The position numbers and the translations under genes are program-made. A stretch of DNA of 64,000 bases, taken from contig OZ024742.1 of NCBI GenBank assembly GCA_964016885.1, positions 171,306,001 through 171,370,000 on the forward strand, in the 5' to 3' direction. Below the pieces are notes generated by a model. The model was not told the origin of the DNA. It saw only the letters and a program-made list of their open reading frames with translations, and did no database searches. Shown here one piece after another: positions 28,515 to 64,000 of the stretch. Positions within the stretch are counted from its first letter, which is position 1. The number at the start of each line of letters is the position of its first letter. This DNA comes from Eledone cirrhosa. Its lineage: Eukaryota.

Positions 28515-28548
<34 letters not shown>

Positions 28549-28814
28549 TAAGTATGTATACGTACATACATATATATATACAGACGTATAGTAGTATGTA
28601 TATACATACATACATGCACACATATATATATATATGTACGTATGGGTTTACCGAACATTTATTATAATGTTCGGTTTGTTTGTAAACAAATAGCCCGAAT
28701 TAAGCCGTACAGTGTTCGGCAACCATCGTTGCCCTTTTGTTCAACACTGACAAAGAAACAATGAACTAGTTTCAGCACTGTATACCTTCCTGTTAATCGA
28801 TTGAACGTTTGAAA

Positions 28815-58254: not shown

Positions 58255-58317
58255 ATTTCATTATACATATTTCAAGGATACCAAGTTAAATTATGGTATG
58301 CCTTCATCAGACAAAAT
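58255..58317 (-). ncRNA. Hammerhead of the 19022 family with a covarying stem II
   Basis: ATTTTGT-CTGATGA-AGGcATACCA(taatttaact)TGGTATCCTt-GAAA-TATGTA-TA-ATGAAAT. Confidence 0.8.
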
Positions 58318-58404: not shown

Positions 58405-59593
58405 ACGTGGGAAAGTAAAAATCGGAGAATAGACCGTTAAAACATGTTTATTTAAAACATCACCTACGTACGTTTCGCCCAGTTGGGCTTCTCAAGGGCA
58501 TAAATAATCACAAGTGTTCCATATATAGTTCGGAAAGAGTTTTGGGGGTTAAATCTACATCAAGATTCATTGCTCGCAAAAATATCTTGTTTTGATTTTG
58601 CAGCAGGCCAAGGGAGGTAACTCTGGCCGGTGTTAGGGCAGTCTTTCCCGGATAATTGTTTTTTTCTTTTTTTTTTTCCGCATCCGTTTGTCTGAGGCTG
58701 GGTCTGGTATGCAAGGATTGTTTTCTGGGTGTTATTTTGCAGCGCCTGCCCGCCGGGGTGTTAGGACTTGTTGCAGGGAGATCCAGTGTACTATTTCACT
58801 CTTCATCCTTAACCCATCTAAAGAAGGAAATTTTTAAGCGATGTGTACAACTTATCGCTGTTTCATCTCTGCTGTTGATGAGCTCGTGGGGTGCAGTTAT
58901 GATGTGGTAGAGCTCCATGAGGCAAAGATCGCATTTCCTCTTGACTGCACCCCACGAGGTCATCAATAGCAGAGCTGAAACAGCGATAAGTTGTACACAT
59001 CGCTTAAAAATTTCCTTCTTTAGATGGGTTAAGGATGAAGAGTGAAATAGTACACTGGATCTCCCTGCAACAAGTCCTAACACCCCGGCGGGCAGGCGCT
59101 GCAAAATAACACCCAGAAAACAATCCTTGCATACCAGACCCAGCCTCAGACAAACGGATGCGGAAAAAAAAAAAAGAAAAAAACAATTATCCGGGAAAGA
59201 CTGCCCTAACACCGGCCAGAGTTACCTCCCTTGGCCTGCTGCAAAATCAAAACAAGATATTTTTGCGAGCAATGAATCTTGATGTAGATTTAACCCCCAA
59301 AACTCTTTCCGAACTATATATGGAACACTTGTGATTATTTATGCCCTTGAGAAGCCCAACTGGGCGAAACGTACGGGGGTGATGTTTTAAATAAACATGT
59401 TTTAACGGTCTATTCTCCGATTTTTACTTTCCCACGTTCTTACGCTTTGCTAACTCTCTAGCCCACTAAATATTAACACTTCGAATATTTAATACTGCCG
59501 GCACTAGTATCGAGCACCTTTGGCATACGCTACTTGGCAAATAACTATATGTATCACCTATCCCCCCTTTTTTTCTCTTTCTCGATACGTAAA

Positions 59594-59974: not shown

Positions 59975-60391
59975 TATGTATACGTACATACATATATGTA
60001 TACTGACGTACAGTAGTATGTATATACATACATGCACACATGTAAGCATGTATATATGTATATATATACATGTACGTATACATTCTTATATTTAAGTATC
60101 AGCCGTATTAAGAGTGAGAAATGAAATTTCATGTTTTCCTTATATATATACATATATGTATATATATATATATATAGTTAAAAATGTACATCCATATATG
60201 TATACTGAAATACTTGTATGCATATGAATACACACACGTATACATATGTAGATGTACCAAGTCTTTCACTGGTTACTTTACTGTGAGTATCCAGCTATTC
60301 TGTATGTAAACACACAGACAAACCGGTTTTTAGAGTCATACTGGTTTTTGAGGAAACACCTTTCCTCTATTCTCCAGAAAGCCAGACAAGG

Positions 60392-60436
60392 AATATTGAA
60401 CTAGTTTCGTTGTTGTTACAACTCATCAGCAATATT
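60392..60436 (-). ncRNA. Minimal type I hammerhead ribozyme (inverted copy)
   Basis: Exact reverse complement of 60864-60908. Confidence 0.9.
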
Positions 60437-60863
60437 TACCTATCTACCGGCCTTTCTGGAGAATCGTAAAAGCACATATCGTTATATGCTTTTTCTATGA
60501 AAATTAGTAGTGGGCAGACTAATTTGCATAGAGTGTGAGTACGTACCGGTTCAACGGAGACGATAAAAACAAATAACGAAACGAAATTAAATTTCGTTTC
60601 ATTTGTAAATATGCATACTAGTATGTCAGTATACATATATGGATGTACATTTTTAACTTAATTGTTTAAGCGTCAGTCATACAAAAGTGAGTTACAAACG
60701 AAACGAAATTTAATTTCGTTTCGTTATTTGTTTTTATCGTCTCCGTTGAACCGGTACGTACTCACACTCTATGCAAATTAGTCTGCCCACTACTAATTTT
60801 CATAGAAAAAGCATATAACGATATGTGCTTTTACGATTCTCCAGAAAGGCCGGTAGATAGGTA

Positions 60864-60908
60864 AATATTGCTGATGAGTTGTAACAACAACGAAACTAGT
60901 TCAATATT
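60864..60908 (+). ncRNA. Canonical minimal type I hammerhead ribozyme
   Basis: AATATTG-CTGATGA-GTTGT(aaca)ACAAC-GAAA-CTAG-TT-CAATATT; palindromic stem III AACTAGTT; predicted cut after 60901. Confidence 0.92.
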
Positions 60909-63087
60909 CCTTGTCTGGCTTTCTGAAGAATAGAGGAAAGGTGTTTCCTCAAAAACCAGTATGACTCTAAAAACCGGTTTGTCTGTGTGTTTACATACAG
61001 AATAGCTGGATACTCACAGTAAAGTAACCAGTGAAAGACTTGGTACATCTACATATGTATACGTGTGTGTATTCATATGCATACTAGTATTTCAGTATAC
61101 ATATATGGATGTACATTTTTAACTTAATTGTTTAAGCGTCAGTCATACAAAAGTGAGTTACAAACGAAACGAAATTTAATTTCGTTTCGTTATTTGTTTT
61201 TATATATATATATAAATATATATGTGTATATATATATATATATATGTGTATATATATATATATGTGTGTATATATATATAGCCTGGAGTTGCGACCAATA
61301 GATAGTATTAGCAATTGGAAAAACCAACGGAAACATGGTTTCCTCAGTCCGAGTTATATTTCTGCAGAAATTTCACCAGTCTGCCCTCCTGTCATTTTAG
61401 TCAATAATAATTAACTCCGTTCCCGCACCACCAACATGATCCAACATCAAAGATTGATGAGTTGCATAACGTCGAGTTCTTTTACTACTAATACGGAACT
61501 ATACGGAATGACTAGTTCTATCCAGTTGTAAACCACCAAATTGAAATGCATATATATATATTAATTTAAAAGACAACATAATGTAGAGGCTTTAAAACAA
61601 ATATTAACTACATCTTTGCATCATCCACGTGATGCCACATTTATGATATTTGATTTGCATAATGTCGAGTGCTTTAACTCATTACATTATTGTTAGCTAA
61701 CCGGAATGATAACATCTACCCATTAATAAGCCATGCAACATACATGGTATAAACACACACACACGCATTCACATGTACAGATTCATATATACATTTATAT
61801 ATGTATATATTTCACGTATACACACGTACACACACAAACACACATATATATATATAATTGCACTCTGTGTCTCTATGTTCTCTGCGTGTGTGTGTATGTT
61901 GGTGTGTGTGAGTGTTTGTGTGTAATGCTGGTAGCTACTTTCAAATATAACATTCTCCAAAAGAAAAACAAAGTAAATAATATACTGCAATTTAAAATCC
62001 AATCAATAAATAGGAGTTCGATGATGTACTCGAGAATCAAATATATGGTGCCATTCTAATGGAATGGTCTCAGCCCGCAGAGGCTTACGATTTCTCTTGG
62101 GCAGAACATTGATTTTTACTTTAAAAAAAAATGGAGTGGACCTCCGTCGCTTTCGACGATGTTTGTTCCAGTTTTCGATGAACAAAATTAACATGTCAAT
62201 AACTGACCCACCCGCCAAACATATATTAGAAATGTATTTGTATGAATAAATCAATATGAATCCGGACGTGGTCATTTCACCCGATGACTAAGCCTTGTGT
62301 GGTAAAATGGCTGATGTAGGAGGTATCGCTGGCTGTTCTTCCCTGGCAACGATTTTACCATCTTATCCGCAAGGTGCAACTGAAATATATGCACCTCAGC
62401 CAGGAGTGTAGAGTTTGTCTCGGCCTTTCCTTATTTCTTGTCTTCTTTCATAATAATTTTAAAAATATATGTTGAAAATTTGAATATGTTTTATTAGATT
62501 TCTCTAGCTGAAATGGATAAACAAAAATTAACTTTTCTAATAAACGTTTCAATTCACTGTAAGTTTGACCCTATTCATCTTTTAAATAAATAAAATATCA
62601 TTTTTATAGTAGAAATCATTTTTACAGTATATATCGGTATGAACCATTCTTTGAATTTTCCCCAATGTTCGTATTTTCTCATATAGATTATAATTTTACA
62701 CATTTTCAGTTTTCTGAATTAGATATAACGTTTCTTCATTAGAGTGAAAATAATTCTTGCTTAAGAATTGTTTTGCATGAATTCAGGTACCATGCTGTGC
62801 AACTCCTGGAATTTCTCACTGATTCCCACTCACCTTATTTCTATTCCATTCATGCTTTTATACACATTTGTTTTGTTTTGTTTTCTGTTATTTTTATGGT
62901 GTTAATTTTAGATTATTGAGTTATAAGTAAAACCACAATGAAGTTCCGTTCTGAGACAAAACATGAAACTTTCATTGTCCTCATTCACACCTTCCGATAA
63001 TGATAGCATAGGCTTCCTGTTTTGTTTCGTATAAAGGGTTGTATGTTGTCTACACACAACTACACACTCACACCCACGAGCGCATAA

Positions 63088-63138: not shown

Positions 63139-64000
63139 AGGGGAAGCCCAAACGTGTGTAATCCCGACCAGGTCCATACACGACAACCTCCACATCATGC
63201 GATACATCATAGATAGGGTAGGGTGTAAACCTGGCTTTGGTGGGGCTCTGATCAATTTAGATCAGTCTAAGGCATTGATAGGATCTACCATCAATACTTG
63301 GAAGCAGTTCTCAAGGCGGCCGGCTTCGGTCCCGTCTTCAGAGGCTGGATCGCTGCCATGCACACCAGCATCTGCTCGGCAGTCAAGGTGAATGGCTACC
63401 TATCAGAGCCATTCCAAATCATGCGTTCCATCCGTCAGGGAAGCCCTCTCTCCTCCATTCTGTATGTACTGACTCTCGAGCCGTTACTGCGGAAATTGGA
63501 GCTTTTGCAGGGAATCCCGATCGAACCAGGACTGCGGAAAGCAGCGTCAGCCGATGCCGACGACATAACCGTAATGGTGTCGAAAACCTCGGAAATCAGG
63601 GTAATCGGCAACCTATTACAGGAATACGAAACATTGACAGGAGCAAGACTAAACCCAAACAAGTCTGTCGGTTTGCAACTCGGCGGCACATGGAGAGACA
63701 AACCCATGCCTTCCAACAGTGTTGTTGGACGCTGGACGGAAGGACCGGTGAAATTGCTCGAGGTCTGGTTCGGTCTAGACCTCCAGGTGGACAAGAACGG
63801 CGAAGGTGTTTGCACTCACCCAGAAGTGGGCTGAGTGCAAACCCTCCTTGAAAGGTCGAGCGGAGGTGGCGAACACTTAATTAGCGTCCGTCATCTACTA
63901 CCGCTTGACAGTCGTGCCTTGCCCCTGCGAATACCTACCCTGCGAATGCCTACTCTTCAAGTTCCTCTGCAAGAAACAGGCTCCATTGGTGAGGAGATCC
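63139..64000 (+). mobile_element. Decayed 5'-truncated Tx1-clade LINE starting just after (TATC)n
   Basis: GEAQTCVIPTRSIHDNLHIMRYII..DQSKA..RQGSPLS with frameshifts; homologous to 39487-40365; (TATC)n at 63088-63125. Confidence 0.9.

Follow-up and report, generated by a model that had tools for sequence, protein, structure and literature searches.

The 466-nt repeat analysed here from the genome of Eledone cirrhosa is a non-LTR retrozyme on every sequence feature that can be tested. It is a recently amplified family, likely copied in trans by a Penelope-like element (PLE) of the Neptune type from a predicted circular monomer RNA. The class of element is already known and the 466-nt family adds a member to it. 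Its insertions provide unusually clear genomic evidence for Penelope-type mobilisation, more likely than not from a circle. The starting point was one copy in a window of 64,000 nucleotides (contig OZ024742.1, positions 171,306,001 to 171,370,000), for which a preliminary description had proposed a retrozyme. That reading is borne out by tandem hammerhead units that are non-coding, dispersed genome-wide and copied through an intact cut site.

The insertion in the window and its predicted ribozyme

The copy in the window has a 466-nt period, visible as a 129-nt direct repeat (60609-60737 and 61075-61203) at a spacing of 466 with 1 difference, and two inverted arms of 433 nt (60176-60608 and 60692-61124) with 3 differences. 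The parts of the insertion are collected in Table 1. The period, the near-complete inverted copy, the (TA)n on both sides, the extension of stem I and every hairpin arm named in the preliminary description were all found in place. The absence of a meaningful ORF, also claimed there, agrees with the longest ATG frames round the 466-nt circle, which are of 19 aa in sense and 50 aa in antisense. GC content is 32% across 60001-62000. The predicted fold of the linear unit has a z of -10.2 against 100 shuffles, and folding as a circle, which had been suggested as a check, gave a z of -11.8 against 30 shuffles. The insertion is recent, as had been supposed, but is not the youngest, with its 3 differences over 433 nt compared to none across 18 whole units elsewhere.

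Table 1. Parts of the retrozyme insertion, in window coordinates
Feature	Position	Strand	Remarks
Left (TA)n target	60141-60176	.	
Inverted arm, unit ~83/86 to 466, then 1-49	60176-60608	-	End is the "short" site beside (TA)n
Type I hammerhead of the inverted arm	60376-60447	-	Rfam HH9; predicted cut 3' of 60399; palindrome at 60399
Head-to-head arm junction	60606-60608	.	3 nt separate the best local alignments
One whole 466-nt unit	60610-61075	+	Predicted monomer circle; non-coding; strongly self-paired
13-bp hairpin, unit 89-117	60698-60726	+	Between both fixed end sites
Type I hammerhead	60853-60924	+	Rfam HH9; predicted cut after 60901
Second unit, positions 1-128 only	61076-61203	+	End is the "long" site beside (TA)n
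"Tail" of ~69 nt, short (59) to long (128) end site	61135-61203	+	
Right (TA)n target	61201-61280	.	

The hammerhead has the core CTGATGA at 60871-60877, a helix I of 7 bp (60864-60870 with 60902-60908) continued by a bulge and 2 bp, a helix II of 5 bp, and the GAAA motif together with the invariant core. The 8-nt palindrome AACTAGTT at 60894-60901 ends at the predicted cut and holds helix III, which consists either of A-U and C-G closing a 2-nt loop or of 1 bp with a palindromic tetraloop. The Rfam model HH9 aligns at full length to both hammerheads of the window copy with 38.6 bits (E-value 1.6e-7), loop III being missing. At the gathering thresholds of Rfam, 52 in the case of HH9, there is no match. 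Matches to microRNA and sRNA families at a loose threshold were discarded as noise from simple repeats or hairpins.

This hammerhead had been called perfect. The core, the position and the cut after 60901 hold, whereas helix III has only 1-2 bp and the cut-site triplet of the window copy is GUU. GUU is the weakest triplet that hammerheads allow, and poor cleavage is expected of a ribozyme that combines it with a weak helix III. Closure of helix III costs about 6 kcal/mol in a model of the monomer, and in the predicted circle the pair probabilities are 0.66-0.96 for helix I and 0.89-0.99 for helix II. Because helix III is limited to 1-2 bp within a palindrome and the triplet is GUU, the hammerhead likely needs to act as a dimer and is predicted to cut slowly.

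The fold of the ribozyme is conserved. The GUU triplet is present in 183 of the 186 sampled units (about 99%), and C or A occupies the cut site in 67 cores genome-wide against 5,107 cores in total, the two patterns differing slightly. The core is intact in 168 of 186 covering units and carries 1-2 changes in the others, in a sample picked in part by this core. The hammerhead is also the least variable region of the unit, with 0.36 minority loci per column compared to 1.34, partly through selection. Compensatory changes occur in helices I and II, where 6 of 16 pairs are altered on both sides among six sequences from three families. In the covariation alignment 96.9% of the cells pair, compared to a maximum of 52% in slid controls, and none of 500 shuffles reached the score. 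The sequences are few and related, and the covariation is taken as supportive of the predicted fold and not as a probability.

The family, its relatives and the form of the insertions

A search of the 3.0 Gb genome with the exact core of the 466-nt family, referred to as family A, gave 5,107 matches, and the reversed-pattern control gave 0. The unit period of family A is 465-468 and its arrays reach about 24 units; the first 100 exact core matches sit in 27 loci, from which some 1,400 loci are estimated in all. A looser pattern, which retained the palindrome and had any base but U at the cut site, identified 32,212 additional hammerheads (control 12). Among the first 100 of these matches listed, 89 belong to a family B (GUA site, period 420-540, about 67% identical to family A) and 11 to a family C (GUC site, period 469, 87% identical). 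Family B is apparently about 6 times commoner than family A. Its helix II carries a U-U at the base, and its unit includes a TA microsatellite that varies (L185, L141:7820-8330). A weak profile match of 244 nt (L149:6728-6971, E-value 3.5e-7) may represent a fourth, more distant retrozyme family. The unit of family A is also found at low depth in sequencing runs X4-X6, and the summed depth in run X1 was not taken as copy number; among the runs listed as containing the unit, none is on record as RNA.

Fragments of family B with 74-87% identity are present in the window at 59980-60145 and 28543-28774. The first of them directly abuts the left TA run, a case of repeated insertion into a single TA tract. 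A frame of 187 aa at 63271-63834 (+) resembles, as judged by eye, a fragment of a LINE reverse transcriptase.

The insertions were studied in a sample of 65 stretches, 39 with a whole near-identical unit and 26 from the first 100 core matches of contig 1, two ways of selection that each enrich for arms with the ribozyme. The overlapping duplicates L005, L022 and L030 were excluded at the outset; L029, which duplicates L028, was left out of the variant-sharing and flank/end statistics and of the count of 5' starts.

Two head-to-head arms are seen in 45 of 67 clusters, and the inverted arm is the rule in family A and not an oddity of the window copy. A long end (unit 125-129) is paired with a short end (49-60) in 40 of the 45 two-arm clusters; the remainder comprise one short-short cluster, no long-long cluster and four with one odd end. 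Under independent and equal choice of the two sites the probability of such pairing is 1.9e-11. At least four of the clusters classed as single-arm have a tiny second arm. The fixed ends run into TA repeats in 99 of 106 cases. Both end sites are kept in family C and lie at homologous places in family B. Loose ends at the same three points, with (AT)n following, are also present in run X1, which may stem from the same sample. The preliminary description had suggested checking whether copies start at permuted positions, which is true of the 5' starts, scattered across the whole unit (n=111), and does not hold for the outer 3' ends, which lie at two fixed sites separated by 69 nt. The base (84-88) of the hairpin at unit 89-117 has 8 of the 111 starts compared to 1.2 expected; the cut site (291-295) has none, again compared to 1.2 expected, a deficit that is weak and by itself uninformative. 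The junctions between arms are mostly blunt, overlap by 1-5 nt or contain a short filler, and three of them (L003, L074, L078) are perfect palindromes.

Besides the tandem overlap there are no terminal direct repeats at the loci examined, and a target-site duplication is unreadable because the insertion ends lie in (TA)n. At L023 and L061:7211-7773 the two flanks read as mutual inverted copies, with a TA run and a few unique bases, and with GAT against CAT repeats.

The cut site is passed by 99 of 112 arms, a proportion inflated because loci were chosen for a whole unit or an intact core. It is passed twice or more by 34 of the 112 arms, with a maximum of 13 times, and the arms are up to about 16 units long.

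Coding elements with a reverse transcriptase, a GIY-YIG endonuclease and the Neptune cysteine linker (CxxC) are abundant in this genome, which has 10,597 GIY-YIG candidates. Coding Neptunes (L136, L140, L142 and L145) show inverted arms, a one-sided tail and (TA)n ends, with a tail of about 46-62 nt as counted by eye. Two open RT+GIY-YIG frames of 938 and 1096 aa, from stop to stop (L131:4306-7122, minus strand, and L133:1775-5065, plus strand), are candidate active Neptune helpers. The window itself contains at 58405-59590 the 3' end of a coding PLE in two head-to-head arms, 94% identical to a stretch beside the GIY-YIG match of L104. Each arm has a minimal hammerhead variant (59346, plus strand, and 58496, minus strand) and only the right arm has a longer extension. 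A further minimal hammerhead-like motif near 58310 on the minus strand, found in L139 and L149 too, is probably the 3' end of another PLE-related family.

It might be argued that the 466-nt stretch belongs to a longer coding PLE, as its pseudo-LTR or 3' end, or that it is an ordinary satellite or MITE in which the hammerhead is incidental. The pseudo-LTRs of PLEs do have type I hammerheads and the same arm geometry, and at one of 64 loci (L063) the retrozyme abuts, head-to-head, a Neptune endonuclease fragment that is broken by another repeat. A PLE protein match lies nearby at 4 of the 64 loci, L063 included, and at none of the 64 is a unit preceded by an in-line PLE ORF, which does not agree with the genomic half of the outcome named in the preliminary description as refuting a retrozyme, that every copy is a pseudo-LTR of a coding PLE. 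What precedes a unit is a further unit, unrelated DNA, TA repeats or the inverted arm. The 21 5' flanks of single-arm clusters are unrelated to one another in sequence, and an in-line PLE ORF is absent from all of them. In 74 PLE loci, a small part of the 10,597 GIY-YIG candidates, BLAST and a four-unit profile of families A-C revealed no pseudo-LTR homology; besides the weak match in L149, they gave only insertions of families A and B that stand apart from the PLE. The coding PLEs examined carry different, minimal hammerheads. The ends of the insertions are asymmetric and are not terminal inverted repeats, and the covariation of the stems speaks against an incidental motif. The pseudo-LTR or satellite reading is largely refuted by these observations and we consider it extremely improbable.

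Variants shared between the arms and the proposed copying of the RNA

The mean distance between units is 0.23% within an arm, 0.25% between the arms of a locus and 2.97% between loci, in pooled comparisons in which the two longest arrays weigh heavily. Family variants are common to both arms in 139 of 165 cases, compared to 29 expected from random loci, and the 26 confined to a single arm include several at recurrently mutated positions. Private changes show the reverse distribution, with 102 in one arm and 10 in both. Fifteen young loci differ mutually by 2-28 columns and several haplotypes have therefore been active. At 7 loci both arms are made up of units with a rare C17 variant, which occurs in 67 units genome-wide; one of these loci has 21 such units. 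As many as 20 units are identical in young arrays, and in one array 18 of 18 whole units are identical over both arms. The assembly could contribute to such perfect homogeneity, although older arrays do resolve differences between units.

These features would follow from a mechanism in which a tandem locus is transcribed and two hammerheads pair through the palindrome of helix III and cut slowly after GUU, the monomer then being ligated to form a circle. A dimer of the PLE protein would bind near the hairpin at unit 89-117 and cut both strands of a TA run. Reverse transcription would be primed by one target end at site 128 and by the other at about 54-59 on the same RNA variant. Each enzyme would travel along the circle past the ligated cut site, stopping at a variable point, and a short filler or microhomology of 1-10 nt would link the two cDNAs head-to-head. 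A Neptune-type PLE would supply both the reverse transcriptase and the GIY-YIG endonuclease. The best fit to the observations is obtained if one RNA variant was primed twice and synthesis continued across the intact cut site; the simplest template for repeated passage of that site is a circle. A cleaved linear monomer was rejected as template, as no end or start occurs at 292/293. In the most specific form of the proposal a dimer would prime both target strands at the two fixed sites of a single circular RNA, with rolling synthesis in both arms, such that one mutation would produce a whole palindromic array in one step; we regard the case for this form as evenly balanced.

The same two-site insertion by a PLE could instead have used an uncleaved linear read-through transcript of an array, with arrays regenerated and homogenised by unequal exchange at the DNA level and a hammerhead that rarely cuts or serves another step. 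Such a template is consistent with the predicted weakness of the ribozyme (GUU, helix III of 1-2 bp) and with the use of unprocessed RNA as a PLE substrate in vitro (PMC11167929). Arrays also contain periodic shared variants: a variant of period 3 is confined to one arm of the L085-L086 array, the arrays of L181 and L182-L183 show block patterns, and in L187 and L082 two unit variants alternate as ABAB (14 and 4 shared columns), a pattern that a heterodimeric circle or the duplication of two units would produce. Since shared variants occur in non-adjacent units, dimer circles or later unequal exchange would have shaped the long arrays, which may in part grow at the DNA level after insertion. 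On a linear template, however, 5' truncation can only shorten arrays, yet many haplotypes fill whole two-armed arrays, and 11 variants known from a single sampled locus are fixed in every unit there. The low variability of the hammerhead, in part an effect of selection, and the pairing kept across the families also count against this alternative. Simple twin priming of the L1 type on one linear RNA is rejected, as just 2 of 40 loci have a long-end arm that begins close to the short site. We consider the uncleaved linear template a serious alternative, though a rather unlikely one.

The inverted arm could also arise if priming took place once and the cDNA then folded back to serve as its own template. 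Such self-priming has been suggested for the inverted repeats of PLEs (PMC3846280); the sharing of a variant by both arms would be automatic and the three perfect-palindrome junctions would be accounted for. The arm lengths in 9 of 40 loci are nevertheless impossible for a copy of the first arm. Such forbidden differences are rarer than under random pairing (9 compared to 14.7, P 0.016), and some fold-back may therefore occur. The longer arm can be either one, the arm lengths are uncorrelated (rho 0.03), and fold-back leaves unexplained why the second arm stops exactly at the other fixed site. As a general explanation it is improbable, and we infer two priming events on one RNA variant.

Relation to known retrozymes and Penelope-like elements

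The manner in which animal retrozymes move and the origin of inverted, one-tailed PLE insertions are both named as open questions in the sections covered of PMC7229834, 10.1101/2021.04.23.441226, PMC11167929 and 10.64898/2026.07.22.740005. Both become testable from sequence alone in a family that is young, short, non-coding and rich in haplotypes. Two constraints absent from those texts are added by family A, namely that the arms nearly always use different priming sites and that they share one template variant, and a 466-nt minimal substrate with defined start sites is named for in vitro work on PLEs. If the proposed mechanism is true, the insertions would give direct evidence from the genome that Neptune PLEs move animal retrozymes by rolling-circle retrotransposition, the inverted repeat and the one-sided tail of PLEs would be explained jointly, and tens of thousands of hammerhead circle elements would record PLE integration insertion by insertion.

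No description was found in the open literature on cephalopod or octopus retrozymes or on non-autonomous Penelope elements, though supplements may list such repeats. In the part covered of the giant squid genome paper, 235 Rfam hammerhead matches are given without analysis (PMC6962438). In the open literature covered, no account was found of the 466-nt family or of two-armed, tailed retrozyme insertions.

The closest known elements are the metazoan non-LTR retrozymes of coral, mussel and axolotl, with newt satellite 2, which in the sections of PMC7229834 covered are likewise short, AT-rich, non-coding tandem units with one type I hammerhead per unit, a self-paired circle fold, thousands of copies and co-existing PLEs. 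Helix III of family A resembles that of axolotl HHR_Amex1, with 1 bp and a palindromic tetraloop, which cleaves poorly alone and well as a dimer, and the U-U of family B is as in HHR_Amex2 (PMC7229834). The unit of family A is larger (466 nt against the 150-450 bp quoted) and has GUU in about 99% of its copies. Circles have been shown for the repeats of coral, mussel and axolotl (PMC7229834), whereas that of family A is a prediction from its sequence. The two-armed inverted insertions, the fixed tail ends and the targeting of (TA)n seen here have no description in those sections.

The vertebrate PLE-derived retrozymes (bioRxiv 10.64898/2026.07.22.740005) are similarly non-autonomous and PLE-linked, family A falls within their range of 51-972 bp, and many of its loci contain two consecutive units with a complete hammerhead, the criterion used there. 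In the portion of that report covered, the PLE link comes from co-occurrence and pseudo-LTR homology, local tandem expansion is favoured, cleavage was seen in only 1 of 9 predicted retrozyme dimers, and the classes listed include no mollusc. The 74 PLE loci here gave no pseudo-LTR homology, yet the footprint is of the PLE type.

The EN+ PLEs (Neptune, Penelope/Poseidon, Naiad) share with family A the 5' truncation, partial tandems, an inverted 5'-truncated head-to-head copy, a tail at one end and a bias for (TA)n, as far as they are described in the parts covered of 10.1101/2021.04.23.441226 and PMC3846280. Family A differs in lacking a reverse transcriptase or endonuclease, in arms of up to about 16 units and in a canonical-size hammerhead with an extended helix I, theirs being minimal. 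Its tail of about 69 nt is longer than the 30-40 nt of published PLEs, in the sources covered, and nearer to the 46-62 nt of the local Neptunes.

In the sections of PMC11167929 covered, the PLE protein cuts and extends both strands, unprocessed RNA is the main substrate and ribozyme activity is dispensable in vitro. Reverse transcription of the element studied there, PAc, begins at two internal sites that define the tail, as proposed here for family A. No difference in start site between the strands is reported in those sections, whereas the two arms of family A nearly always differ in this respect.
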